A DNA stretch of 64,000 nucleotides. Source: Candidatus Gottesmanbacteria bacterium RIFCSPHIGHO2_01_FULL_40_15. GTDB taxonomy: Bacteria > Patescibacteriota > Microgenomatia > 2-02-FULL-39-11. The notes beneath the pieces are model-generated. The model made no database searches and was not told the DNA's origin. It worked only from the letters and a program-made list of their open reading frames with translations. The stretch lies in the NCBI GenBank assembly GCA_001779115.1, contig MFJF01000005.1, positions 76,922 through 140,921 of the forward strand, given 5' to 3'. The first letter of the stretch is position 1, and every line of letters begins with the position of its first letter. The translations under genes were made by a program, and so were the position numbers. Below, in pieces: positions 6,757-47,229 of this stretch.

Positions 6757-7806
6757 ATGGCGAATATAGATCCGGATAAAGTTAATCAAGCACAAAATAT
6801 ATTGGAAAATGCCCAGTCGATTGCGGTAACCCTGCCGGTTGATCCGAGTGTTGATAAAGTAGCTTCGGCACTATCCCTATATCTTTCACTATCAGCCGCC
6901 GGTAAACAAGTTACAGTTGCCTGTTCTACTCGGATGACAGTTCAATATAATGAACTAATAGGAGTTGATAAGATTTCAACTGTTCTTACCGGTTCATCCG
7001 GCAGAAATCTGGTTATTTCCTTTCCCTATCAGGAAGGATCGATTGAAAAGGTCAGCTACAACATTGAAAACGATAAATTTAACTTAGTCATCGAACCCCG
7101 CGAAGGATTTCCGACAATTACCCAGGAAATGATGAAATACAGCAGTTCAGGCGGAAATATTGACGCAATAGTAACGGTCGGGTGTTCACAGCTTGAGGAA
7201 TTGGGGAATCTTTATTCAAATAACCAGGATTTGTATAACGGAAAACAAATAATTAATCTGGATAATGCATCCAATAATAACAATTTCGCCAAAATCAATA
7301 TTGTAGATACTTCGGCAATATCAATTTCGGAACTTATGAATGATTTTATTAACCAGTTAGGGTTGAATATGGAACCGGATATTGCCACAAATTTACTGGC
7401 AGGGCTGACGAGTGCCACCGATAATTTTTCATCAGGTGAGGTGACAGCCTCAACTTTTGAAACAGCGGCTAATCTATTAAAACAGGGGGCCAGGAAAAAA
7501 CAAATCAGAAAAAGTTCACAGGCATTTGTGCCCCAAATGAAACAACCGGCTGCACCAACCGCACCAATAGCCAAAAGCCAAAAAACACCGTTCGGACTAA
7601 AAACATCCCCAACCCCACAAACAGATCAATCGCAACAGTCAGGACAGCGCGGAAAATTTCAACCGCCACAATTTCAGAGAACCCAACAACAACCCGGATC
7701 AGACTTTCAACAGCAAAAACCTCCGGTAAGAGAAGCAGGTAAATCTCCGGAAACACCACCGGACTGGTTAAAACCGAAAATATATAAAGGATCAACCCTG
7801 ATTTAA
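6757..7806 (+). CDS. DHH-family (NrnA-like) protein with catalytic motifs replaced; Q/P-rich disordered C-terminal tail
   Basis: Aligns to the NrnA DHH domain, for example IDHHPNEDPYGDLLWVDTSASSVSEMIYEL versus LDNASNNNNFAKINIVDTSAISISELMNDFI. The catalytic motifs are substituted: DHH becomes DNA, DPDAYGS becomes DPSVDKVAS, and GDTGRF becomes SATDNF. No DHHA1/GGGH domain is present; instead there is a roughly 110-aa Gln/Pro-rich tail. Confidence 0.55.
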   Translation: MANIDPDKVNQAQNILENAQSIAVTLPVDPSVDKVASALSLYLSLSAAGKQVTVACSTRMTVQYNELIGVDKISTVLTGSSGRNLVISFPYQEGSIEKVSYNIENDKFNLVIEPREGFPTITQEMMKYSSSGGNIDAIVTVGCSQLEELGNLYSNNQDLYNGKQIINLDNASNNNNFAKINIVDTSAISISELMNDFINQLGLNMEPDIATNLLAGLTSATDNFSSGEVTASTFETAANLLKQGARKKQIRKSSQAFVPQMKQPAAPTAPIAKSQKTPFGLKTSPTPQTDQSQQSGQRGKFQPPQFQRTQQQPGSDFQQQKPPVREAGKSPETPPDWLKPKIYKGSTLI

Positions 7807-7857: not shown

Positions 7858-7886
7858 TTGAGATTTCATTAACAATAAGTTATAAT
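7858..7886 (+). promoter_or_regulatory. sigma70-like promoter for rpsO-pnp
   Basis: TTGAGA, a 17-nt spacer, then TATAAT. The 5'UTR hairpin TCCGCC-ggataag-GGCGGA (7916-7934) lies about 14 nt before the rpsO ATG. Confidence 0.45.
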
Positions 7887-7947: not shown

Positions 7948-8217
7948 ATGGCGTTGGATCCTAATAACAAGAAAAAAATAATTACCGAGTATGCTACAAA
8001 AAAAGGTGATACAGGCAGTCCTGAGGTTCAAATCGCCTTATTAACCCACAAAATTGATAAACTTGTCGGACATTTAAAAGGTAATCCGAAAGATAACCAC
8101 TCCAGAAGGGGCTTATTGGGAATGATATCCAAAAGAAGAAGACTGATTAATTATTTATCCAATAAAAATAAAGACAGGTATAAGGAGATTGTCGATAAAC
8201 TGAAATTAAGCAAGTAA
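7948..8217 (+). CDS. rpsO: 30S ribosomal protein S15
   Basis: 89-aa protein with a full-length match to S15 ([14 protein letters not shown]...[16 protein letters not shown]). Confidence 0.95.
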
Positions 8218-8250: not shown

Positions 8251-10410
8251 ATGAAAAAAATTGTTAGCAAATCAACTGAAATCGGCGGACGGACTATAAC
8301 ATTAGAAGTCGGAAGATTCGCCGAACAGGCGACATCGGCAGTACTGGCACGGTTTGGAGACACCATGGTGATTGCGACAGTGGTGGCCTCTCCCAAAATA
8401 TCAAAACTGGATTATTTTCCATTAACTGTTGAATATGTGGAAAGGCTTTATGCAGGAGGAAGAATTAAGGGAAGCCGCTGGGTCAAGAGGGAAGGAAGAC
8501 CAAGCGACGATGCCATCCTGAAAGCACGACTTATAGACCGTTCAATAAGGCCATTATTTAACCAGAATTATAAGCATGATATCCAGATAATTATTACAGT
8601 ACTTTCAGTTGACGGGGAAAATGAACCTGATATTTTGGGAATTATTGCCACCAGTGCCGCTTTGGCAATATCCCCTATTCCCTGGAACGGACCCATCGGT
8701 TCGGTACGGGTCGGATATGTTCCTTCTCCCAACGGTGAAAGCGGTTTTTTCCTGAATCCGGGGCTTAAAGAACTCGCCTTTTCGGAGCTTGACCTGGTTG
8801 TTTCGGCGACAAAGGAAAAAGTGATTATGCTGGAAGCAGGAGCCAACCAAATAAAAGAAGAAACTTTCATTTCAGGGATTGCTTTTGCCAGGGAAGAAAC
8901 AAAAAAAATTATTTCATTAATCGATGACCTGGTTAAAGAGGTAGGCCGGGAAAAAATTGAAATCCGCGATAATGAAAAAATAAAGGAAATTAAAAAAATA
9001 ATCAATAAAGAATACAAAAAAGAAATCGGGAACCTGATATTAGCCAGAGTTTCCAAAGAACAGGAAGGAGACGAACTTACCGTATTATCAGACAGTATTG
9101 CACAAGTTTATGCTGAAAAATATGACAGAGGTGATATCGAAAAGGCAATCGATCAATTATTTAAGGAACAAATAAGACAAGATATTCTTAAAAATAAAAA
9201 AAGGGCTGATGGAAGGAAACCGGAGGATATCAGAGAAATTAGCGGGGAAGTAGGTCTATTACCGCGGACTCACGGATCGGCCATGTTCAGAAGGGGCCAA
9301 ACACAGGTGTTGACCGTAGCGACTTTAGGATCTCCTTCACTGGAACAGCTTATTGAAAGTCCTGAAGGGGAAACAGCAAAAAGATATATGCATCATTACA
9401 GCATGCCCCCCTATTCCGTCGGAGAAACCGGAAGAGTCGGCTTTCCGGCCAGAAGAGAGATCGGTCATGGAGCCCTGGCGGAAAGAGCCCTTTTACCTGT
9501 TATACCGCCACAAACTTCTTTTCCATATACCATAAGGCTTGTTTCAGAAGTGATGTCTTCAAACGGATCAACCTCCATGGCTTCTGCCTGCGGATCAACG
9601 CTGGCATTAATGGATGCCGGTGTTCCGATAAAAAATCCGGTGTCGGGAATTGCCATGGGTATGGTTGAGGAAAATAATAAATATGAACTGTTATCCGATA
9701 TTATAGGAATTGAAGATTTTTGCGGGGATATGGATTTTAAAGTGGCCGGAACAGAGGAAGGGATAACAGCAGTGCAACTGGATGTTAAAAATTCAGGATT
9801 AACCGATCAGGTAATCACAGAGTCTATAAAAAAGGCAAAGCAAGGACGGCTTCATATTCTTCAAAATATGCTCACAGTTATTCCCAAATACAGGGAAACA
9901 CTGTCAAAATTTGCCCCAAGAATTTCCGTGATTATAATTCCAAAAGAAAAAATCGGTGAAATAATCGGTCCGGGAGGAAAAATAATCCGGCAAATTATTG
10001 CCGAAACCGGCTGCGATATCAACGTTAACGATGACGGTCAGGTGACAATTGCCGGAATTGATCCGGTAAAAGTGGAAGTCGCCCTCAAATGGATAACCGG
10101 AATTATAAAGGAAGTTGTACCGGAAGAAGTATATCAGGGTTTAGTAAAAAGAATTCTACCGTTTGGAGCATTTGTGGAAATACTGCCCGGGCGTGAAGGA
10201 ATGGTTCACGTATCACAGATGGCGTCAGAATATATTTCCGATCCTTCGGAAGTCGTAAAAATCGGCCAGCAAGTGACAGTCAGAGTTATAGAAATAGATG
10301 ACCAGGGCAGAATTAATTTGTCAATGCTTTTCGGGGAGGATGCCAAGAAAAAAACTGTCAGACCACAAGGTAAAAGGGAACACTTCCAGAAGCGCAGATG
10401 GAATAAATAA
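8251..10410 (+). CDS. pnp: polynucleotide phosphorylase
   Basis: Two RNase PH domains, a KH domain and an S1 domain. The protein is 719 aa. Confidence 0.95.
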   Translation: MKKIVSKSTEIGGRTITLEVGRFAEQATSAVLARFGDTMVIATVVASPKISKLDYFPLTVEYVERLYAGGRIKGSRWVKREGRPSDDAILKARLIDRSIRPLFNQNYKHDIQIIITVLSVDGENEPDILGIIATSAALAISPIPWNGPIGSVRVGYVPSPNGESGFFLNPGLKELAFSELDLVVSATKEKVIMLEAGANQIKEETFISGIAFAREETKKIISLIDDLVKEVGREKIEIRDNEKIKEIKKIINKEYKKEIGNLILARVSKEQEGDELTVLSDSIAQVYAEKYDRGDIEKAIDQLFKEQIRQDILKNKKRADGRKPEDIREISGEVGLLPRTHGSAMFRRGQTQVLTVATLGSPSLEQLIESPEGETAKRYMHHYSMPPYSVGETGRVGFPARREIGHGALAERALLPVIPPQTSFPYTIRLVSEVMSSNGSTSMASACGSTLALMDAGVPIKNPVSGIAMGMVEENNKYELLSDIIGIEDFCGDMDFKVAGTEEGITAVQLDVKNSGLTDQVITESIKKAKQGRLHILQNMLTVIPKYRETLSKFAPRISVIIIPKEKIGEIIGPGGKIIRQIIAETGCDINVNDDGQVTIAGIDPVKVEVALKWITGIIKEVVPEEVYQGLVKRILPFGAFVEILPGREGMVHVSQMASEYISDPSEVVKIGQQVTVRVIEIDDQGRINLSMLFGEDAKKKTVRPQGKREHFQKRRWNK

Positions 10411-11564
10411 TGAAGTTTTCGACTACTTCAATCCACTCCGGCAACAAACCCAATCTTAAAGCAGGCGGCAGCGGTGATGTAATTATCCCTATTCATTTAT
10501 CAACAACTTTTGCCCGGAAAAAAATTGATAATCCTACAGCCGGATATGAATATTCACGGAGCGGAAATCCGACCAGATACGCTCTGGAAAAAAATCTTAC
10601 CAACTTGGAAGAGGGTAAATGGGCGTATGCTTTTTCCTCAGGCTTGTCAGCTATCACTGCAGTTTTATTGACTTTGCAAAAAGGTGATCATGTAGTTTCC
10701 ATTGATGATGTTTACGGCGGAACAAGACGACTATTCAACCAGGTATTTGCAAATTTCGGAATTGAATTCACTTATGGTGATTTTGCAAATAATAATGAAC
10801 TTCGGAGGCATGTTAAAACCAATACAAAATTAATCTGGATAGAATCCCCCACTAATCCTTTACTTAAAATTGTCGACATAGCTTCAGTATGCCAATTTGC
10901 CCGTGAGAAAAATATCATAACTGTTGTCGATAATACATTCGCATCGCCTTATTTCCAACGCCCATTGAAACTGGGAGCGACAATTTCATTGCATTCCATG
11001 ACAAAATACATAGGCGGACATTCAGATGTTATCGCCGGATGTATTATCGGTAATGATAAAATTTTAGGTGAAAAAATAAAATTTATACAGAATGCCGCCG
11101 GAGCCATTCTTTCTCCTTTTGACAGTTTTCAGATATTAAAAGGGATAAAAACACTTTCACTTAGAATGGAGAAACATGAAGAAAATGCCAAAAAAATCGT
11201 AACCTTCCTTTCAAAAAATGATAAGATCAAAAAAATATATTATCCGGGAATTCCAACACATAAAGGAAATAATATTGCCAGAAAACAAATGAGCGGATTT
11301 TCCGGCATGCTATCATTTGAACTTAAGGCATCGCTCCGGTCAACGTTGACTTTTTTAGAAAATCTGAAAATTATTTCCATTGCCGAAAGTTTAGGTGTTG
11401 TTGAATCTTTAATTGAACATCCGGCTTCAATGACTCATGCTTCAATTCCAAGACAAGACAGGGAAAAAATAGGCTTATCGGACGGTTTGATAAGATTATC
11501 TGTCGGAATTGAAGACGCTTATGATCTGATCAGGGATTTAAATCAGGCTTTGAAAATAATCTAA
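10410..11564 (+). CDS. PLP-dependent Cys/Met-metabolism enzyme (cystathionine gamma-synthase/beta-lyase/methionine gamma-lyase family)
   Basis: Trans-sulfuration family signature with the PLP lysine (SMTKYIGGHSDVIAGC). The start ATG overlaps the pnp stop (TAATG). Confidence 0.8.
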   Translation: MKFSTTSIHSGNKPNLKAGGSGDVIIPIHLSTTFARKKIDNPTAGYEYSRSGNPTRYALEKNLTNLEEGKWAYAFSSGLSAITAVLLTLQKGDHVVSIDDVYGGTRRLFNQVFANFGIEFTYGDFANNNELRRHVKTNTKLIWIESPTNPLLKIVDIASVCQFAREKNIITVVDNTFASPYFQRPLKLGATISLHSMTKYIGGHSDVIAGCIIGNDKILGEKIKFIQNAAGAILSPFDSFQILKGIKTLSLRMEKHEENAKKIVTFLSKNDKIKKIYYPGIPTHKGNNIARKQMSGFSGMLSFELKASLRSTLTFLENLKIISIAESLGVVESLIEHPASMTHASIPRQDREKIGLSDGLIRLSVGIEDAYDLIRDLNQALKII

Positions 11565-11600: not shown

Positions 11601-12698
11601 ATGATAACAACTTCTTCTGATTCCCAGAATCAAAACGGTGAATTTTCCGAACTGATAAAACTCAGGCAAAAAATAACGGATAGTCATCTTCCTTCCGATC
11701 TTCGGGATAAAGTAAATACAATGATTGAACGGGCAGAGTTAAGTTTTAAATACCATACCCAATTTTCCCAATTCGATGCCGTTGCCGGTTATATTGATTG
11801 GATTACGGCCTTACCCTGGCAGACTTTCAGTCAGGATAATATGGAAATAGAACAGGCGAAAAAAATTCTGGATAAAAACCATTACGGTCTTAATGAATTG
11901 AAAGACAGAATTTTGGAGTATTTGTCAGTTATGAAATTAAATCTTGATCAGGCTAAAATTGATCCGTCAATTACCGATCATAATATTGCCAGGGCGCCGA
12001 TTTTATTTTTTGTCGGCTTAGTCGGGACAGGTAAAACCACAATTGCCATATCCATAGCCGAAGCATTGGGCAGAAAATTCATCCGCATTCCATTCGGAGG
12101 CATGGGATCAGCACTTGATTTAAGAGGTGAATCGAGAGTCCACCCGGATGCGGAAGTAGGCCATGTTATGAAAGCCTTAAGAAGAGCCGGAACAAAAAAT
12201 CCGGTAATTCTGCTTGATGAATTAGACAGGGTTGCCGAACATGCGCGGGCTGATATTATGGGTGTTTTGATCGAACTACTTGATCCTGAGCAAAATGTCT
12301 CTTTTACCGATCACTATATTGATTATCCGTTTGATTTGTCACATGTACTGTTTATTGCAACAGCCAATAACACCAATAATATTTCAACTGCGGTTATGGA
12401 CCGGTTGGAACCTATTCAAATGCCCTCATACAATGATGATGAAAAAATAATAATCGGTAAAGCTTATGTTTTTCCCAAAGTACTTAAATCGGCAGGTTTA
12501 AACGATAAACTATTAACAATAGACTCCAATGTCTGGCCTTTAATTGTCCGGCCGCTCGGATTTGATTCAGGTATAAGAACACTGGAGAGGACTATTGACG
12601 GAATATGCCGTAAAGTGGCCAGGCAGATAATTGAAAAAAAACATACCCAGGTTTTTATTTCAGCCGACAATGTCAAGCAATACCTGCCAACATGGTAA
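11601..12698 (+). CDS. Lon-like AAA+ ATPase module without LAN or S16 protease domains
   Basis: Collinear with the E. coli Lon region from about residue 300 to 585: YIDWITALPW, HYGLNELKDRILEYLSV, GLVGTGKTT (Walker A), LLDELD (Walker B), LLDPEQNVSFTDHY, and the alpha-helical lid. The ORF ends exactly where the Lon protease domain would begin. The RGHRRTY motif is degenerate (RGESRVH). Confidence 0.75.
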   Translation: MITTSSDSQNQNGEFSELIKLRQKITDSHLPSDLRDKVNTMIERAELSFKYHTQFSQFDAVAGYIDWITALPWQTFSQDNMEIEQAKKILDKNHYGLNELKDRILEYLSVMKLNLDQAKIDPSITDHNIARAPILFFVGLVGTGKTTIAISIAEALGRKFIRIPFGGMGSALDLRGESRVHPDAEVGHVMKALRRAGTKNPVILLDELDRVAEHARADIMGVLIELLDPEQNVSFTDHYIDYPFDLSHVLFIATANNTNNISTAVMDRLEPIQMPSYNDDEKIIIGKAYVFPKVLKSAGLNDKLLTIDSNVWPLIVRPLGFDSGIRTLERTIDGICRKVARQIIEKKHTQVFISADNVKQYLPTW

Positions 12699-12725: not shown

Positions 12726-14435
12726 ATGATCAACCCGATAAACAGGAATATCTTTGGCAATCCACAATCTATATTGCGGATTATCCCTTTGGGAGGAATA
12801 GGCAATGTGACGAAAAATTTATATGTTTACGAATACAGAAGCCGGCCTGATAACATTTCGGATATCCTAATTGTTGACTGCGGAGTAGGTTTTCCCGATG
12901 AGGCAATGTACGGAATTGATCTGGTTATTCCGGATATAACTTACTTGCGGGATAAAATAAATAAAATCAGGGGAATTATACTTACCCACGGGCATGAAGA
13001 TCATATAGGAGCGCTTCCTTATATTCTGCCGGTACTAAATGTTCCCGTATACGGAACGTTATTAACTGCCAAACTTGCCGAAGTCAAGTTACAGGACTCC
13101 GGTTTGCAAGTAAAGGTTAATGTAATAAACGAAAATATTCCGCTTAAAATAGGGCCGTTTTCGGTTGAATTTATCCATGTTACCCATTCAATTCCGGATG
13201 CTGCCAATCTTTTCATTAAAACTCCTGTTGGTAATTTTTACCACGGCAGTGATTTTAAATTTGACTGGACACCGATTGACGGCAAAAAAACAGAAGTTGA
13301 CAAAATTGCCAGGGCGGGAAAAGAGGGTATAACCTGTTTATTATCCGATTGCGTCAGGGTGGAAACAGAAGGATATACATTGTCTGAAAAAATAATTGAA
13401 GAAACTCTGGATAAGGAAATCAGGAATTGCCCGGGGAAATTTATATTCACTACCCAATCTTCAAATATTTCAAGAATCCAGCAAGCCATTGACGTCTCAA
13501 TCAGAAATAACAGAAAAATAGTCTTTTTAGGCCGGTCAATTGAAAGAAATGTCGGGGTTGCTTACAGATTAAAATATGTAAATTACAGCGAAATGTTTGT
13601 TGTAAGGGACAAAGATATCAGAAAATATAAAGACTCTGAATTAAGCCTCATTGTCACCGGCAGCCAAGCCCAGCCAAATTCGGCGCTTTCCAGAATTGCC
13701 GAAGGAATCCATAAATTCGTGAGAATTAAAGAAGGTGACGTGGTGGTTTTTTCAGCAGATCCGATTCCCGGATATGAAAATGCAGTTCATACTTTGATTG
13801 ATCTTCTGACGGTAAACGGGGCCAGAGTGGCTTATTCGGAGATACAAGACCAGCTTCATGTGTCCGGACACGGTGCGAGAAATGATTTGGCTTTAATGAT
13901 CGGTTTGACTCAGGCGTCAAATCTTTTACCCATAGGCGGAACCTACCGCCAGATGCGGCATTATTCCCAGATGGCCTTTGATATGGGGTATAAACATAAT
14001 CAGGTACTTTTACCGCTTGAAGGAGAAATTATTGAATTTTCAGCTTCCGGACAAGTTAGAATTGCAGAAAAATTAAGCCTGAAGAATGTAATGATCGACG
14101 GTTTGGGTGTCGGGGATATCGGAAATGTTGTTTTACGGGACAGGCAAACAATGGCCAGCGAAGGAATTGTGATTGTGGTTGTACCTTTGGACAAATCATC
14201 AGGAAGAGTAACTGCTGAGCCGGACATAATTTCCCGGGGATTTATCTATATGAAAGAATCTGTAGATTTAATCGATGAAGCAAAAAAAGTGATAATAAAA
14301 TCCTTAAGACTGAAAAAAGGGAGGATTACTGACTGGCAATTTGTCAGAAAACAGGTGGAAAAAAATCTGGAAGGATTCCTGTTTAAGGAAACACACAGAA
14401 GACCTCTTATTCTTGCCGTAGTAGTTCATGTATGA
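12726..14435 (+). CDS. rnj: ribonuclease J (metallo-beta-lactamase/beta-CASP)
   Basis: HGHEDHIGALPYIL motif, a beta-CASP region and a C-terminal domain. The protein is 569 aa. Confidence 0.9.
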   Translation: MINPINRNIFGNPQSILRIIPLGGIGNVTKNLYVYEYRSRPDNISDILIVDCGVGFPDEAMYGIDLVIPDITYLRDKINKIRGIILTHGHEDHIGALPYILPVLNVPVYGTLLTAKLAEVKLQDSGLQVKVNVINENIPLKIGPFSVEFIHVTHSIPDAANLFIKTPVGNFYHGSDFKFDWTPIDGKKTEVDKIARAGKEGITCLLSDCVRVETEGYTLSEKIIEETLDKEIRNCPGKFIFTTQSSNISRIQQAIDVSIRNNRKIVFLGRSIERNVGVAYRLKYVNYSEMFVVRDKDIRKYKDSELSLIVTGSQAQPNSALSRIAEGIHKFVRIKEGDVVVFSADPIPGYENAVHTLIDLLTVNGARVAYSEIQDQLHVSGHGARNDLALMIGLTQASNLLPIGGTYRQMRHYSQMAFDMGYKHNQVLLPLEGEIIEFSASGQVRIAEKLSLKNVMIDGLGVGDIGNVVLRDRQTMASEGIVIVVVPLDKSSGRVTAEPDIISRGFIYMKESVDLIDEAKKVIIKSLRLKKGRITDWQFVRKQVEKNLEGFLFKETHRRPLILAVVVHV

Positions 14436-15295
14436 GGAAAAAAAACCGGCGCAAAAAAATCGGCAAATTTAAACCGGCTCTTTTTATTATTACCTTCCTT
14501 CTCTTTCTGCCGTTTATCTATTCATACAAAATTTACAGCATAAATCCGCAACTTAAGTTTCCGAGAATCAGCAAGGTCAATCTTTCTTCTGATCCTTTGG
14601 TCCTTTCCAATATCCGTTTAAACGTTTTGGGTGCCCAGGCAATTGAACCCTTTGACATTGTCAAATACGTAAATACAGAGCGGAATAAAAAAGGGAGTCA
14701 GCCTCTTATCATTAATGAAAAACTGGTTAAAGCAGCCCGGATGCGGGCAGAAGTTATACTGAAATACCAGAACTTTTCACACCAGGATCCCTTTGAAAAC
14801 ATTGAACTTATAACAGTCATGCCAAAAGTCGGATACAGTTACTCTTATGCCACGGAAAATATCGGTATGGGCGGCTTGTCAGCGGAAGATTTCGTTTCCG
14901 GGTTTATGAACAGTACCAGTCACCGATTAAATCTGTTGGATCCCCAGCTTTATCACACCGGTACGGCAGTGGTAACGGGATCTTATAAACAGTATTTTGT
15001 CAATATCGCGGTACAATTGTTTGCCGTTCCTTCCAGCCGGGAAGAATATTTAGGTTATAACGACATTGACAGGAAAAATTACGGGGCAATACTTACAAGA
15101 CTTGATTATCAATTAAATCCCCTGATTCTGAATTTGCATAAGTTCATCAGTAATAAACAGATTAATGACGAAAAAATTCAAAAAATCAGAAAACAAAAAG
15201 AGATTCTGATGAAACTTCTGGAAATTATGAATGAGGATAAACCGTTTAAGGAAGAACATATTGCGCTTATTTCCGAATACAACGGTTATCTTTGA
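14432..15295 (+). CDS. membrane-anchored CAP/SCP (PR-1-like, YkwD-type) domain protein
   Basis: N-terminal TM helix. CAP motifs are present: ATENIGMGG...MNSTSHRLNLLDPQLYHTGTAV. The start overlaps the rnj stop (ATGA). Confidence 0.6.
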   Translation: MRKKNRRKKIGKFKPALFIITFLLFLPFIYSYKIYSINPQLKFPRISKVNLSSDPLVLSNIRLNVLGAQAIEPFDIVKYVNTERNKKGSQPLIINEKLVKAARMRAEVILKYQNFSHQDPFENIELITVMPKVGYSYSYATENIGMGGLSAEDFVSGFMNSTSHRLNLLDPQLYHTGTAVVTGSYKQYFVNIAVQLFAVPSSREEYLGYNDIDRKNYGAILTRLDYQLNPLILNLHKFISNKQINDEKIQKIRKQKEILMKLLEIMNEDKPFKEEHIALISEYNGYL

Positions 15296-35453: not shown

Positions 35454-37625
35454 ATGTCATTACTTACCCAGATTTTGCCGAAAAAGGAAGGCACAAATTA
35501 TTTCATTCTTTTAGGTCTTGAGGAGAATATTGTCAGGGCGGCGGTTGGAGAAATTTCTGACAGCAAAGTCAGAATCCTGGGAACCGGTAAAAGCGAATTT
35601 GCCGACGAAAAGAATGAAACGGAGGCGGTTGATATGGCCATATCCATGGCCGAAAAATCCCTGCCTGAAGAAATACTTCCGGAAAATGTCATATTTGCCC
35701 TGCCCCAGTTTTATCTTGAAGGAACAAACGTCAAAGAAGAATATTTGAAAAGACTGAAAAAAATTTCCAAAGAGCTGAATTTGAAAGCGGAAGGCTTTGT
35801 CGATTATGCTTCTGCTATCAGCTATTACCTGGATAATGAAGAGGGCGCGCCGCCAACAGTATTGCTTTTTGACCTGACCAAAAACCACCTGACGATAACC
35901 CTTATCAGAATCGGAAAAATTTCCCAGCATGTTATCGTTGACAGAACAGATTCCATAGTATCTGATTTTTCCGGGGCTTTGCCCGAATTTAAGGCGGAAA
36001 TTCTGCCTTCAAGAATTATTCTTTATGACGGTGCGGAAAAAATTGACGAGATAAAAGAAGAACTTCTCAGATTCCCCTGGCACAAGCATTCCATATTCTT
36101 ACATACCCCCAAAATCGAAATTCTGTCAAATGATAAAATTCTGAAATCCATAATTGAGGCGGCATCGACGACATTTCTGCCTAAACCTGACGCATTAATC
36201 CAAATGAAACAGTCTTATAACCCGGAAGACACCGGTGAAAAAGAAACCGTAACTGAAAATCCGCCGAAAATTGGAGAAACACAAAAAATTGTAGGCGATG
36301 AGAATGACAAAGCGCCAGATACGGATAATGAAAATAAACAGAATTTCGGATTTGTCAGTGAAACACTGGCGGAAAAAGCGGAGAAATTTAAAAGAGAAAC
36401 ATCACCATATTCTGAAAGGTCCGGCAGGAAAAACGGACATGAGGCGCCAATTGATATAGGCGCAATTAGCGGTCAAATCATAACCAAATTTAATAATATC
36501 AAAGGAGTTTTTTACCTGGTACCATTGGTTTTATTAATTTTTGTTGCTTATCTTTTTATATTAAATTATCCCAGGGCGTCCGTTTCCTTAATAACTTACC
36601 CCAGACCGTATGATCAGACATTGGATATCGTATTTTCACAGGAAGCCGGGGCGGGAGACGATTTGCCTCTTATATTAACCAGAACTGTTAAAGGCGAGGC
36701 AGGCGGAGAAAAATCAGCCAAAACTACCGGAAAAAACCAGATCGGAGAAAAAGCCAAAGGTGAAATTTCAATTTACAATAAAACTTTATCCTCAAAACAA
36801 TTGCCTAAAGGAACAATTTTACAAACCGGACCGTTAAAATTTACTTTGGATGGTGATGTAAAAATTGCCTCAGCAACGGAAACCGGAGAAGGAATAAACT
36901 TCGGAAAAGCATCGGCTAAAGTAATTGCGGCAGTTATCGGACCGGAAGGAAATCTGGCGGCTAACAGTAATTTCACGGTGGTTGATTTTTCCGACTCTAC
37001 ACTGACTGCCAAAAACAGCCAGCCATTCTCAGGCGGAACAAGCCGGGAGATTGCCAGCATTTCAAGGGAAGACCGGGATAATCTGGAAGAAAAGTTAATG
37101 ACTGAGCTTGTCAATAAAGCCAAACAGAGTCTGGTAAAAGAATTATCATCAGGAGAAAGACTCCTCGAAACACCAATATCAACTGAGATTTCAGCCAAGA
37201 AATTCAGCGGTGAGGCGGGAAGTGAAGCTGAAAAACTTAATCTGTCCATGACATTAACAGTTGAAGCCCAGGTTTTTAAGCAAAACGAATTGGAAAAACT
37301 GGCAGAGGAAAACAAATTATCGGCAATAGCCGGTTATACTTTGGACAAGGATAAAGTGAGCTTCAGCGTTTTAGAGAGTGTGATTGAAAAAAACGGATCA
37401 ATCAAGGCAAAGGTTAAACTTGTTTCCTATTTTATTCCCGATCTTGACATGGGGAAAATCAAAAAAGACCTCAAAGGAAAAACCTATGACGGAGCCGTTT
37501 CATATCTGGAGAAAATCGAAAACATTGCCGGAGTTAAAATATCGGTAATAAGGAAACTGCCTCTTTTTAATAAACGCCTCCCGTATTTGCCGGATAATAT
37601 CAGTGTATCACTGGTATCCAGATAA
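35454..37625 (+). CDS. bitopic membrane protein: N-terminal FtsA/PilM-like (degenerate actin-fold) cytoplasmic region, TM helix, large extracytoplasmic domain
   Basis: The N-terminus YFILLGLEENIVRAAVGEISDSKVRILGTGKS resembles the first phosphate-binding strand of FtsA/PilM but lacks DxGT. A TM helix lies at about residue 345. The 3' end overlaps the sortase ORF. Confidence 0.45.
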   Translation: MSLLTQILPKKEGTNYFILLGLEENIVRAAVGEISDSKVRILGTGKSEFADEKNETEAVDMAISMAEKSLPEEILPENVIFALPQFYLEGTNVKEEYLKRLKKISKELNLKAEGFVDYASAISYYLDNEEGAPPTVLLFDLTKNHLTITLIRIGKISQHVIVDRTDSIVSDFSGALPEFKAEILPSRIILYDGAEKIDEIKEELLRFPWHKHSIFLHTPKIEILSNDKILKSIIEAASTTFLPKPDALIQMKQSYNPEDTGEKETVTENPPKIGETQKIVGDENDKAPDTDNENKQNFGFVSETLAEKAEKFKRETSPYSERSGRKNGHEAPIDIGAISGQIITKFNNIKGVFYLVPLVLLIFVAYLFILNYPRASVSLITYPRPYDQTLDIVFSQEAGAGDDLPLILTRTVKGEAGGEKSAKTTGKNQIGEKAKGEISIYNKTLSSKQLPKGTILQTGPLKFTLDGDVKIASATETGEGINFGKASAKVIAAVIGPEGNLAANSNFTVVDFSDSTLTAKNSQPFSGGTSREIASISREDRDNLEEKLMTELVNKAKQSLVKELSSGERLLETPISTEISAKKFSGEAGSEAEKLNLSMTLTVEAQVFKQNELEKLAEENKLSAIAGYTLDKDKVSFSVLESVIEKNGSIKAKVKLVSYFIPDLDMGKIKKDLKGKTYDGAVSYLEKIENIAGVKISVIRKLPLFNKRLPYLPDNISVSLVSR

Positions 37626-37632
37626 GGGAAAA

Positions 37633-38337
37633 ATGGCAATTTATTCCTACACCAAAACAAAAGCGCCGATATCAAAAAAACTTCTATCGGTAATATCAGT
37701 CGTTCTCATACTGACAGGACTGACTCTTTTAACTGCCGTCATCTACCCGATCGTTGCTTTTGAAATTTATTATTCTTCAAAATATGCCAATTTAATCAAG
37801 CCGATTCCTGATGACAATAAATCATTAACCGGAAATTTATCGGAGGTGCTGGGTACGGCCTTTACCGATTACACAAAAGCAAGCATCTGGTTTCCCAAGG
37901 CCAGCCGGGTTAATCTTGTCAGGAATTCTTCCCAATATCTGTTGTCGATTCCCAAATTAAAAGTAAATAAGGCAAATGTTATTGTCGGATCAGATGACCT
38001 GTCAAAATCGCTGATACACTTTACCGGACCGCTACCGGGAAGCCGCGGAAATCCGGTCATATTCGGGCATTCAACCATACTTCTTTTTTACAACCCTTCA
38101 GACTATAAAGCGATTTTTTCCAAACTTCCTGATCTTGAACTGGGAGATGAGATATTTATTGAACTGGATAATGTCACCTATACTTTCAGAGTTTATGATA
38201 TGTTTATAACATCACCTTCGGATCTGTCGGTGCTGGAGCAAAATACCGACGATGAAGAAATTACTTTGATAACTTGTGTTCCTCCGGGAACATATCTTAA
38301 GCGGTTTATAGTTAAAGCGAGACTGGAAAAAATATAA
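37633..38337 (+). CDS. sortase family transpeptidase
   Basis: N-terminal TM helix, catalytic His (IFGHS), TLITC (TLxTC Cys) and a conserved Arg (VKARL). The start is placed at the ATG with an AAGGGA RBS; the track start at 37603 is rejected. Confidence 0.8.
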   Translation: MAIYSYTKTKAPISKKLLSVISVVLILTGLTLLTAVIYPIVAFEIYYSSKYANLIKPIPDDNKSLTGNLSEVLGTAFTDYTKASIWFPKASRVNLVRNSSQYLLSIPKLKVNKANVIVGSDDLSKSLIHFTGPLPGSRGNPVIFGHSTILLFYNPSDYKAIFSKLPDLELGDEIFIELDNVTYTFRVYDMFITSPSDLSVLEQNTDDEEITLITCVPPGTYLKRFIVKARLEKI

Positions 38338-44018: not shown

Positions 44019-45926
44019 TCAGCTTACTACTTCGCCTTCCTGAACTTCATCTTCTTTTTTCTTCCCGTCTTTTTTACCTTTAGATTCTTTTTCATCAACC
44101 TCTGGTTTTTCTTCAGAATGTTGTCCTTCTTTTTGACCCTGATACATAGCCTGGCCTATTTTTTGCAGGCTGTCTGACAGCTCCCGGGTTTTTGTTTCAA
44201 TTTCTGCCGAACCGGCCTTATCCAAGCTTGATTTCAGAGAAGAAATTTTTTCTTCAACTTCTTTTTTAACAGACGGGTCTACCTTTTCCCCGGTATCTTT
44301 TAAGGATTTTTCGGCTACATAAATCAGATTATCGGCTTTATTTCTGGCTTCAATTGTTTCTTTCTTTTCCCGGTCTTCGTCGGCATGTTTTTCAGCTTCT
44401 TTTGTCATCCGGTCAATCTCATCTTTAGCAAGTCCGGTCGTAGCCGTTATTTTTATGCTTTGGGACTTTCCGGTAGCTTTATCTTTGGCTGACACATTAA
44501 GAATGCCGTTGGCATCAATATCAAATGTAACTTCCACTTGGGGAACTCCTCTTTGAGCCGGAGGGATGCCGTCCAGAATAAAGCGGCCGAGTGATTTATT
44601 ATCAGCGGCCATGGGACGCTCACCCTGTAAAACATTTATTTCAACAGACGTCTGATTATCGGCGGCGGTTGAAAAAACTTCGGTTTTACTGGTAGGAATT
44701 GTCGTATTTCTGGAAATTAAGGGTGTTGTTACCGCTCCCAATGTTTCCAATCCCAGAGTCAGGGGTGTAACATCAAGAAGCACGACATCTTTAACGTCTC
44801 CCATAAGAATACCACCCTGGACTGCCGCTCCAACAGAAACCACCTCATCGGGATTGACGCTTTTATTAGGTTCTTTACCGAAAAACTTTTTAACCCTTTC
44901 CAAAACCTTGGGCATTCTGGTCATTCCTCCGACCAAAACAATTTCATCTATTTTATCTTTGCCGATTTTAGCGTCTTTTAAACAGGCTTCAATCGGCGGA
45001 ATTGTTTTTTCAATCAGATCCGATACGATTGATTCCAATTTCGCTCTGGTTAATTTCTGGACCAAATGGAGCGGTCCCTGATTTCCCTGGGTAATAAAGG
45101 GCAGATTAATTTCCGCTTCCATTGAAGTGGACAACTCAATTTTGGCTTTTTCGGCAGCGTCTCTTAATCTTTGAAGGGCCTGGGGGTCTTTTCTCAGATC
45201 GATATTGTTCTCCTTTTTGAATTCATCGGCAATATGATTCAAAATATCCTTGTCAAAATCGTCTCCTCCCAAATGGGTATCTCCATTGGTTGCTTTTACC
45301 TGATAAACACCTTCACCCAACTCCAAAACGGAGATGTCAAAGGTGCCTCCGCCCAGATCGTAAACGGCAACTGTATGGGCGTGTTTTTTATCAAGACCAT
45401 AAGCAAGTGCGGCAGCTGTGGGTTCATTAATTATCCTTTTTACTTCCAAACCGGCTATCTCACCTGCCTGTTTGGTTGCCTGTCTTTGTGAATCGTCAAA
45501 ATATGCCGGAACAGTTATAACCGCCTCCGTAACTTTTCCGCCGAGATAATTTTCGGCATCGGTTTTGATTTTTTGGAGAATTTGAGCTGATATCTCCTGC
45601 GGGGTAAAAGTTTTACCGTCAACCTCAACTACTGCCATTCCGTCCCTTCCGGCCTTAATGGTATAAGGCAACCATTTTAAATCGAATTGGATCGATTCAT
45701 CCTTAAAACGGCGGCCCATTAACCTTTTAACGGAAAAAATTGTGGTTTTGGGTTTCATAACCATTTGACGTTTAGCGACATCACCGACTATCCTTTTTAA
45801 AGGATCAACAACTGAAGGGATAACGTTTCTTCCTTCAGCCGAATGGATTACTTTCGGTTTGCCTCCCTCCATTACAGCAACGCAGCTGTTGGTTGTTCCC
45901 AAATCTATTCCGATTATTTTTGCCAT
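44019..45926 (-). CDS. dnaK: molecular chaperone DnaK (Hsp70)
   Basis: [22 protein letters not shown] and the rest of the canonical Hsp70 sequence in a 635-aa protein. A strong AAGGAGG RBS lies upstream. Confidence 0.95.
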
Positions 45927-45957: not shown

Positions 45958-46449
45958 TTAATGTCCGGCCTTCCGGTTAACAATTACCTGGGCCGGTCTT
46001 AAAACCTGATTATTCATCATATAAGCAGGTCTTATTTGCCCAATGACCTGATTGTCCGGTTTGCCCGGAGTTACGGAAACGCATTCCATAAACGTAGGAT
46101 CAAATTTACGGTCAAGACAATCAACTTTTTCCACATTTTCTTCCTGAAGCAGATTTATAAATTTATTCAATATCAGTTCAAGACCCTTATCAGGTAAGAG
46201 CTTGGCGGCTGTTTCCAAATCGTCAATTATCGGCAACAGTTTCAAAATAAAATCTTTATTGGCGAATTTTTTAACTTCGGCCGCTTTCTCGCTGACTCTT
46301 CTTTCCAAATTCCTGTAGTCAGCCAGCGCCCGGAGATATTTATCCTTCCATTCGTCGGAATTTAGTTCAGACTTTTTATCCTGATCCGGCTTTTTTCCTT
46401 TATTTGGTTCATTTTCCTGTACGGTTTTAGTATTGTTGCTTTTTTTCAT
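45958..46449 (-). CDS. grpE: nucleotide exchange factor GrpE
   Basis: The GrpE coiled-coil and beta-domain are present. The start is assigned to MKKSNNT at 46449; the track's upstream extension overlaps hrcA and is rejected. Confidence 0.85.
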   Translation of the reverse strand: MKKSNNTKTVQENEPNKGKKPDQDKKSELNSDEWKDKYLRALADYRNLERRVSEKAAEVKKFANKDFILKLLPIIDDLETAAKLLPDKGLELILNKFINLLQEENVEKVDCLDRKFDPTFMECVSVTPGKPDNQVIGQIRPAYMMNNQVLRPAQVIVNRKAGH

Positions 46450-46453
46450 TGGT

Positions 46454-47188
46454 TTACCAGGATTTAGCCAGATCATTAATGAGATCACCCATATACCTGA
46501 CAATCGGGACAATACGGGGATAATTGAGCCTGACCGGGCCGACAACACCGATTGCCCCCTGATGATGGGGTGAATTGAACTTGACGAATACCGTACCGCA
46601 TGAGCTTAATAATTGACCGCCCAATTCTTCACCGACCAGGATGCGGAGCGATTCTTCCTCTTTATTATCAAAAGCTGAAAATATTTTCCACCAGTAATCA
46701 TACTGATCCAGGGTATCAAGCAGATGTTTGGTGATATCGATATCGTAAAATTCAGGCATATCCAATATGTTTCCCAGCCCTGAGGTAAAAAAATCTCCCT
46801 CATTTGTAGCTGCCAATGACATGGCATTGGTTTGTTTGGCTAATGTTTTGGTCGCCTCTCTTAAAAGGCGGTCCATTTCATTACGGTAATCCCAAATCTT
46901 TTGCTTAACATTAACTTCTTCATTTACCGATAATTCCTTGGTTTTCATCAGTTTATCAACATAATATTTCAAAGCATGCGGAGTGGGTGTCCTTCCAGCA
47001 GAAGTGTGAGGCTGCTGGAGAAATCCGGCATCAGTTAATTTGACCATTTCGTTTCTGATTGTTGCCGGTGAGACACCCAAATCGTACTTCTTATCCAAAG
47101 TTTCCGAAGCCACCGGTTGGGCCGTATTAATAAATTCATCGATTATAGCCTTAAGTATTTGGAGCTGTCTATCAGTTAAATCAGCCAT
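46454..47188 (-). CDS. hrcA: heat-inducible transcriptional repressor HrcA (short form)
   Basis: N-terminal wHTH LQILKAIIDEFINTAQPVASETL. The protein is 244 aa. Confidence 0.85.
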   Translation of the reverse strand: MADLTDRQLQILKAIIDEFINTAQPVASETLDKKYDLGVSPATIRNEMVKLTDAGFLQQPHTSAGRTPTPHALKYYVDKLMKTKELSVNEEVNVKQKIWDYRNEMDRLLREATKTLAKQTNAMSLAATNEGDFFTSGLGNILDMPEFYDIDITKHLLDTLDQYDYWWKIFSAFDNKEEESLRILVGEELGGQLLSSCGTVFVKFNSPHHQGAIGVVGPVRLNYPRIVPIVRYMGDLINDLAKSW

Positions 47189-47192
47189 GGAA

Positions 47193-47229
47193 TTAGCACT
47201 AAAATATCATGACTGCTAAAGTTTGTCAA
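47193..47229 (-). promoter_or_regulatory. hrcA promoter with embedded CIRCE operator
   Basis: CIRCE-like inverted repeat TTAGCACT-N9-TGACTGCTAA (47193-47219), matching 8 of 9 positions in each half. On the minus strand, TTGACA (47224-47229), a 17-nt spacer and TATTTT (47201-47206) form the promoter. The repeat overlaps the spacer and -10, and the implied transcript start is only a few nt before the ATG. Confidence 0.6.

Follow-up and report, generated by a model that had tools for sequence, protein, structure and literature searches.

A stand-alone, protease-less Lon-type AAA+ ATPase encoded in a pnp–rnj gene string of Microgenomates and related bacteria of the Candidate Phyla Radiation

The LonA protease (MEROPS S16), represented by the enzymes of Escherichia coli (6n2i, 6u5z), Bacillus subtilis (3m6a) and Meiothermus taiwanensis, carries a LON_substr_bdg domain and an S16 Ser-Lys protease domain in addition to its AAA+ module. 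In the HCLR clade of AAA+ proteins, ClpX and HslU are single-ring proteins encoded without a fused peptidase, and stand-alone unfoldases with separate partner peptidases are the rule in this clade. Within the Lon family itself, a review of the Lon subfamilies gives all Lons both an ATPase and a protease domain (PMC9569914), and LonC of M. taiwanensis is presented in two papers as a Lon-like protease without ATP-powered unfolding for which a chaperone role has been proposed (PMC3391209, PMC13069640). Here we describe a gene, which we call LonAAA, found in a stretch of 64,000 nucleotides (the window) of Candidatus Gottesmanbacteria bacterium RIFCSPHIGHO2_01_FULL_40_15 (assembly GCA_001779115.1, contig MFJF01000005.1, positions 76,922 to 140,921 of the forward strand). 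Its product can be considered the mirror image of LonC. Both are Lon-family members in which one half of the machine is disabled and the other kept, but LonC retains its protease beside an AAA-like module that is inactive, whereas LonAAA has an apparently active ATPase and no protease.

All the analyses summarized below indicate that LonAAA almost certainly encodes a member of a conserved family of the Candidate Phyla Radiation (CPR), derived from LonA by loss of the N-terminal substrate-binding and S16 domains, with the three-helix bundle, the alpha/beta subdomain and the lid kept. The gene and the elements of its product are the following:

11601..12698, + strand: LonAAA gene, ATG start, stop codon included; 365 aa, Lon-type AAA+ ATPase
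11631..11810, + strand: three-helix bundle, residues 11–70, including YIDWITALPW (AlphaFold2 helices 11–27, 32–51 and 56–70; E. coli Lon alignment from residue 253)
12015..12041, + strand: Walker A, GLVGTGKTT, with Lys145 (100% conserved)
12117..12164, + strand: remodelled pore loop 1, DLRGESRVHPDAEVGH, with His181 at the canonical Tyr position and conserved acidic D183 and E185
12207..12230, + strand: Walker B, ILLDELDR, with Asp206 and Glu207 (both 100% conserved)
12231..12266, + strand: remodelled pore loop 2, VAEHARADIMGV, with Ala215 at the aromatic position and ADIM where canonical Lons have GDP
12366..12368, + strand: sensor-1 Asn256 (100% conserved)
12402..12404, + strand: trans-acting arginine finger Arg268 (100% conserved)
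12426..12686, + strand: Lon-type alpha-helical lid, residues 276–362, holding sensor-2 Arg326 (12576–12578)

The 365 residues are collinear with LonA residues ~253–579, with 35–44% identity to LonA proteins, E values of ~1e-71 to PDB chains and TM-scores of 0.86–0.92 to 6n2i. A previous examination of the letters and open reading frames (ORFs) only, hereafter the sequence-only reading, had placed the collinear segment between the YIDW...LPW helix and the lid. Its end was correct, as the C-terminus of LonAAA lies 3 residues past the lid, at the place where the S16 domain of LonA begins. Its start was not, since the similarity begins earlier, at residue ~11–20, and the whole three-helix bundle, counterpart of the LonA segment directly N-terminal of the AAA+ module, is present. 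That reading had also proposed a stand-alone module without the N-terminal (LAN) and S16 domains, and Pfam, TIGR00763, the PDB and our own hidden Markov models (HMMs) all agree with this. The Pfam scan matched AAA at residues 136–272 (E 2e-17) and Lon_lid (PF22667) at residues 296–348 (E 3.4e-10), and neither Lon_C (PF05362) nor LON_substr_bdg (PF02190) was found in the protein. The NCBIfam model TIGR00763 ('lon') covers LonAAA at model positions 253–572 of 795 only, and the resulting 324.2 bits are below the equivalog cutoff of 608.05 bits, unlike LonA. The best PDB match was the AAA+ module of E. coli Lon (6n2i, E 2.5e-71), other top ones being full-length E. coli Lon (6u5z, residues 253–579) and B. 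subtilis Lon (3m6a); all top PDB and Foldseek matches were Lon and none belonged to another AAA+ clade. Finally, the AlphaFold2 model (pLDDT 87.9, pTM 0.82), in which the bundle, the alpha/beta subdomain and the lid are visible, superposes on 6n2i with TM-scores of 0.86/0.92. The annotation 'ATP-dependent Lon protease' used by some sources should not be applied to LonAAA because four defining features of a Lon protease are not shown by it: the S16 and N domains and the pore-loop aromatics are absent, and its score is under the curated cutoff.

In order to look for the missing domains elsewhere, protease-domain and N-domain HMMs were built from 57 full-length Lons. These models were positive on every canonical Lon in the control loci. 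However, they gave nothing (E<=10) when run against the entire window translated in all six frames, which includes any frame-shifted continuation of the gene, nor did they find a Lon protease domain or N domain within ±8 kb of 98 loci of the short form.

The ATPase site was studied by comparing residues in 236 family members and 136 canonical Lons. The residue set of HCLR AAA+ proteins (Walker A Lys, Walker B Asp-Glu, sensor-1 Asn, trans Arg finger and sensor-2 Arg) is complete in LonAAA, and K145, D206, E207, N256, R268 and R326 are each 100% conserved in the 236 family sequences, the overall identity of which is 40–79%. The Walker A (GTGKT) and Walker B (LLDELD) motifs, reported as intact from the letters, are confirmed as such. 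All these elements and the LDPEQN motif are common to LonA and LonAAA, although the Walker A signature is LVGTGKTT in the family and PPGVGKTS in canonical Lons. Because the trans-acting Arg finger is invariant, the sequence argues for LonAAA being an ATP-hydrolysing oligomer.

The pore loops, in contrast, clearly differ from those of LonA. The segment 'RGHRRTYIGSMPG' of E. coli Lon is aligned to 'RGESRVHPDAEVG' of LonAAA, and the pore-loop-1 position, which is Tyr in 100% of the canonical Lons, is His in 61%, Phe in 8%, Ser in 8% and other residues in the rest of the family. Likewise, the aromatic position of pore loop 2 is Phe or Tyr in most canonical Lons and Ala, Ser or Thr in the family. 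Both residues are lost family-wide and a conserved acidic loop stands in place of the first, with the motif RG-[QE]-S-[RK]-x-H-P-[DE]-A-E-[VP]-G (Ser178 90%, Asp/Glu183 94%, Glu185 97%). The sequence-only reading had called this segment, RGHRRTY in Lon, degenerate. This was the wrong word because the replacement motif is conserved throughout the family, and the pore has been remodelled under selection rather than having degenerated. In M. taiwanensis LonA the residues at these two positions, Tyr397 of pore loop 1 and Trp431 of pore loop 2, contact the translocating polypeptide and are needed for degradation (PMC8503904). Judged by these replacements, a classical unfoldase or translocase role for LonAAA, one of the two functions that had been suggested, is unlikely.

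These data also bear on the possibility of a split Lon, in which the ATPase ring would dock on a peptidase, S16 or another, that is the product of a different gene, and would supply it with substrates in the manner of ClpX with ClpP and HslU with HslV. Such partnerships are usual in this AAA+ clade, LonAAA resembles ClpX and HslU in being a single AAA+ module without a fused peptidase, and a C-terminal aromatic residue (...LPxW/Y) is frequent in the family. However, ClpX and HslU keep aromatic pore loops and the ClpP or HslV docking elements, whereas LonAAA has no pore-loop aromatics, and a ring of this kind should not translocate substrate into a chamber. In addition, no partner peptidase was detected nearby, as the window and the ±8 kb around the 98 loci contain no ORF for a Lon protease domain. 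The C-terminal tail varies within the family, and in the alignment it coincides with the beginning of the ordinary linker between lid and protease in Lon; for these reasons its interpretation as an HbYX-like docking tail was rejected. A split Lon is therefore regarded as very improbable.

The second function suggested from the letters was that of a nucleic-acid-binding ATPase. According to this, LonAAA would have evolved from the reported DNA-binding activity of Lon into an ATPase binding or translocating RNA or DNA, as a stand-in for a degradosome helicase. Its position between two RNases, with ftsK and a uracil-DNA glycosylase (UDG) gene nearby in related loci, and the PDB entries that title E. 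coli Lon 'DNA-binding ATP-dependent protease La' agree with this idea. However, the charge of the protein has changed in the opposite direction: the net charge of the module is −3.5 in the family and −0.8 in canonical Lons, the isoelectric point of the alpha/beta subdomain is 5.6 versus 8.1, and pore loop 1 has passed from +2.9 to −0.8. Moreover, the basic stretch 'ARSKVKKD' of E. coli Lon, which we take to be a DNA-binding site although a literature check turned up no paper for it, is aligned to 'TFSQDNME' in LonAAA. From these sequence properties a nucleic-acid-threading motor is unlikely, and a role in nucleic acid binding or translocation is considered improbable as a whole.

The distribution of the short form was studied at three levels. 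The best 120 clusters from a collection of 5.8 billion proteins, with 67–100% identity to the query, were nearly all of 350–388 aa (one had 547 aa) and contained AAA and Lon_lid only; those with a name came from Candidatus Gottesmanbacteria. An exhaustive search of 1.84 billion representatives added more distant short forms (41–56% identity), and the canonical Lons of ~780 aa ranked below them, with at most 44% identity. Lastly, a survey in which each GTDB species was represented by a single genome yielded at least 80 Microgenomates loci, each from a different species, and all of them contained the short form (~360 aa, 51–76% identity), none having a full-length Lon at the locus. The hosts were Gottesman-, Woese-, Shapiro-, Roizman-, Ames-, Curtiss-, Levy- and Daviesbacteria, including a complete Woesebacteria genome of 819 kb. 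A second, divergent subfamily, with LQGVGKT as Walker A, was found in Candidatus Dojkabacteria and in metagenome contigs of low GC content. Neighbour-joining analysis of AAA+ modules grouped the short forms into a single clade, with 132 of 200 bootstraps for the whole family and 199 of 200 for the Microgenomates core, and the nearest canonical Lons were those of Anaerolineales, Ktedonobacterales, Clostridiales and Veillonellaceae (Chloroflexota and Firmicutes). Some longer family members (P0109, P0122, P0137, P0143, P0163 and P0269) showed no extra domain in Pfam, only AAA and Lon_lid. Four loci with a canonical Lon were considered as possible CPR representatives and rejected: L101–L103 have a high GC content and are clearly not CPR, and L159, of low GC content, is Sulfurimonas.

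The unusual length of LonAAA, and nothing beyond it, could suggest an assembly truncation, a frameshifted lon or an unselected pseudogene. This explanation can be taken as refuted, since the ~360-aa architecture is repeated in hundreds of independent assemblies, the catalytic residues are fully conserved among the 236 divergent sequences, and rnj starts 27 nt after the LonAAA stop codon, with no protease-like frame.

Extra Lon-type AAA+ modules are also present, outside the window, in a group of tandem-AAA Lons of ~900–1700 aa (P0121, P0124–P0129, P0131, P0133–P0136, P0138–P0140, P0144 and others), which have two or three of these modules and one S16 domain and mostly lack, like LonAAA, the Lon N domain. 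The first modules often have a degenerate Walker B or degenerate pore loops. However, in these proteins the extra modules are followed, in the same polypeptide, by a canonical module with its protease, whereas LonAAA stands alone, and the tandem-AAA Lons are separated from the short family in the tree and come from other phyla (P0121 from Candidatus Dependentiae). To our knowledge, no 'double-ring' Lon has been described.

The genes and sites that surround LonAAA in the window are the following:

6757–7806, + strand: DHH-like gene between infB and rpsO, 349 aa; DHH domain matched weakly (E 1.4e-4, under the Pfam threshold), C-terminal tail long and rich in Gln and Pro
7858–7886, no strand assigned: promoter-like site upstream of rpsO, the best in the area (11/12); probable start of the transcription unit
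7948..8217, + strand: rpsO (S15), gene call
8251..10410, + strand: pnp (PNPase), with an Arg/Lys-rich C-terminal tail; conserved upstream neighbour
10410..11564, + strand: Cys/Met-metabolism pyridoxal-phosphate (PLP) enzyme (PF01053, E 1e-148), overlapping pnp by 1 nt
12726..14435, + strand: rnj (RNase J); conserved downstream neighbour
14432..15295, + strand: CAP-domain protein gene, overlapping the rnj stop; final gene ahead of the next promoter-like and terminator-like sites

The coordinates agree with those first reported for the ORF, with gaps of 36 nt from the PLP gene to LonAAA and of 27 nt from LonAAA to rnj. A search for terminator-like hairpins between pnp and the CAP-domain gene found none in the window. 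Because of this, and because the best promoter-like site is upstream of rpsO, the sequence fits a single transcription unit rpsO-pnp-PLP-LonAAA-rnj-CAP, and co-transcription of LonAAA with pnp and rnj is almost certain. The PLP gene had been counted as part of the gene run. However, among the surveyed loci it appears at the pnp-LonAAA junction in this window and in L021 only; it is a recent lineage-specific insertion into the operon, outside the conserved arrangement.

The usual order across the genome loci is nusA-infB-DHH-like-rpsO-pnp-LonAAA-rnj-ftsK. Considering loci with sufficient flank, pnp is upstream on the same strand in 51 of 66 (43 within 400 nt) and rnj is downstream on the same strand in 57 of 70 (35 within 400 nt and 56 within 3 kb). 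With gaps calculated from estimated start codons, the distance from the pnp stop to the LonAAA start has a median of 59 nt and is of 100 nt or less in 33 of 55 loci, and that from the LonAAA stop to the rnj start is of 30 nt or less in 19 loci and of 100 nt or less in 28 of 61. Among the loci with a broken block, six retain LonAAA beside rnj and two beside pnp. The distant subfamily has the same order: of its 18 loci, 8 have rnj downstream of LonAAA and 4 have pnp upstream of it. Thus, the operon expected for a degradosome component is conserved, with exceptions (the groESL loci and the UDG insertion, see below), and this order gives real support to a predicted co-expression of LonAAA with the RNA-decay enzymes, as the sequence-only reading had proposed from the short gaps of a single locus.

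The position of LonAAA resembles that of the helicases of RNase J and RNase E degradosomes, such as RhpA with RNase J in Helicobacter pylori, which are DEAD-box proteins with a demonstrated physical association according to two papers (PMC3592473, PMC7492731). As in the systems treated there, an ATPase is genetically linked to the main RNases, so LonAAA is a candidate for an energy-dependent subunit. However, those helicases are DEAD-box and physically associated, whereas LonAAA is a Lon-derived AAA+ protein with no sign of RNA binding, and its association comes from gene order only.

Taking all this into account, our preferred reading, to which we give a probability of roughly 40% and which is consequently tentative, is that LonAAA is an ATP-dependent accessory factor of PNPase/RNase J RNA decay acting as a non-threading, ATP-hydrolysing ring. 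The protein would be made from the rpsO-pnp-(PLP)-LonAAA-rnj transcript. As no family member deviates at the Walker A and B, sensor-1, sensor-2 and Arg-finger residues, it is predicted to assemble into an AAA+ ring and to hydrolyse ATP. Since both substrate-gripping pore-loop aromatics are gone, this ring would not thread polypeptides hand-over-hand as Lon does. Going by its gene neighbours, LonAAA may help to assemble, remodel or regulate PNPase and RNase J. Its acidic pore might bind a basic segment, for example the Arg-rich tail of PNPase. The PNPases encoded beside LonAAA carry, after the S1 domain, Arg-rich (Arg/Gly-rich) tails with a mean net charge of +5.7 in the last 35 aa (n=58), which are probably disordered. 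That of the window ends in ...KKKTVRPQGKREHFQKRRWNK (tail at ~10330–10407). Tails of this kind are unusual for PNPase and could be an RNA- or partner-binding element. Many of them finish in ...RRF, ...RRY or ...PRR.

In a more far-reaching version of this proposal, the ancestral Lon would have become, in Microgenomates and their CPR relatives, an ATPase without proteolytic activity dedicated to a lineage-specific RNA-decay machine. Its acidic-pored ring would bind PNPase by the Arg-rich tail (or would bind RNase J) and, with ATP, would gate or assemble the RNases, possibly in genomes without any Lon protease. We consider this version doubtful. If it were true, LonAAA would add to the degradosome an energy-dependent component without counterpart elsewhere.

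Several data weigh against the assignment of LonAAA to RNA decay. First of all, the link is drawn from gene order only, and the protein sequence has no RNA-binding hints, the module being more acidic than canonical Lon modules. Second, the whole block nusA-infB-DHH-rpsO-pnp-LonAAA-rnj-ftsK is syntenic in the lineage, and the adjacency of LonAAA to pnp and rnj may therefore be inherited rather than selected. Third, a gene for a family-4 UDG (~195 aa), a DNA repair enzyme, lies between LonAAA and rnj in 23 loci, frequently with overlapping stop and start codons (for example at 11077–11664 of L001, PF03167, E 2.8e-34). Fourth, oligomerisation in the absence of a protease ring is assumed. Finally, in 10 of the 80 genome loci (L016, L031, L032, L034, L037, L039, L041, L055, L062 and L067, Roizmanbacteria-like) and in 2 of the 18 of the distant subfamily (L093 and L097), LonAAA divergently adjoins groES-groEL, with neither pnp nor rnj nearby, and this adjacency points to proteostasis. 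It is a second recurrent context, present in both subfamilies.

A general proteostasis factor, that is, a Lon-derived chaperone or holdase-like protein with ATP-regulated protein binding and no degradation, for which the position beside pnp and rnj would be historical, must consequently be considered. LonAAA descends from Lon and keeps an intact ATPase site as well as the three-helix bundle, which is at the entrance of the Lon ring. The divergent groES-groEL neighbourhood and the inclusion of non-RNA genes (UDG and ftsK) in the syntenic block are also in agreement with such a role. However, the pore-loop aromatics that grip unfolded chains and the N domain by which Lon recognizes damaged proteins are absent, and loci with pnp and rnj as neighbours far outnumber those with groES-groEL and are also found in the distant subfamily. 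In addition, a putative heat-shock operator is present in the window but not at this gene, as indicated by the following features:

hrcA 46454–47188, grpE 45958–46548 and dnaK 44019–45926, − strand: hrcA-grpE-dnaK operon, with a CIRCE-like repeat ahead
47193–47219, no strand assigned: CIRCE-like inverted repeat TTAGCACTAAAATATCATGACTGCTAA, 2 mismatches to the consensus, upstream of hrcA-grpE-dnaK

This CIRCE-like site is the only one in the window; no other was found near the LonAAA gene, nor in the groES-LonAAA spacers of other loci, and HrcA/CIRCE control of LonAAA was rejected. Hence, a general proteostasis function is possible but, in our opinion, less likely, and a role beside PNPase and RNase J is the one that we favour.

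No account of such a protein was found in the literature searched, as had been anticipated: a full-text search gave no description of a protease-less Lon AAA+ protein, nor of Lon in CPR bacteria. The peptidases listed in the paper of the Ch65 Microgenomates genome are secreted ones only. Therefore, a widespread, protease-less and pore-remodelled LonA derivative located in a pnp-x-rnj gene string of CPR bacteria is apparently undescribed. Meheust et al. (2019), in their census of protein families, counted Lon in 911 CPR genomes, with the full three-domain architecture in only 56% of the family members. This is consistent with the short form being lumped with Lon in large-scale surveys, and annotations such as 'ATP-dependent Lon protease' may therefore credit CPR bacteria with more proteolytic capacity than they have. 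In minimal genomes such as that of Mycoplasma only two ATP-dependent proteases are essential, and Lon is one of them (PMC7737663). Here, a clade with reduced genomes retains the Lon motor under strong purifying selection and has lost its protease and substrate-recognition domains as well as the residues that grip the substrate. The AAA+ module must therefore have a selectable function of its own. If its link to PNPase and RNase J is true, LonAAA would represent a new type of energy-dependent accessory factor of RNA decay and a tractable entry to CPR RNA metabolism.

Some minor observations were also made. An assignment of LonAAA to the Lon-like ATPases of anti-phage defence (e.g. BrxL-type) was rejected, as PADLOC gave weak generic AAA matches only (best E 5e-6 over ~135 residues) and the neighbourhood consists of housekeeping genes. 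The DHH-like gene keeps its position between infB and rpsO, where rbfA, truB or nrnA are usual, in most related loci; its 349-aa product may be an NrnA-like nano-RNase, and hence a third RNA-decay gene in the string. Many of the species-representative metagenome-assembled genomes with a typical Microgenomates locus (L007, L010–L012, L015, L019, L023, L026 and others) are titled 'uncultured Gammaproteobacteria', 'uncultured Pseudomonadales' or 'Candidatus Bathyarchaeia archaeon', which appear to be wrong or placeholder taxonomy. Finally, one more ORF of the window was recorded:

35454–37625, + strand: 723-aa ORF without Pfam match, overlapping a sortase gene (37603–38337)

Its product is possibly a sortase-anchored surface protein.

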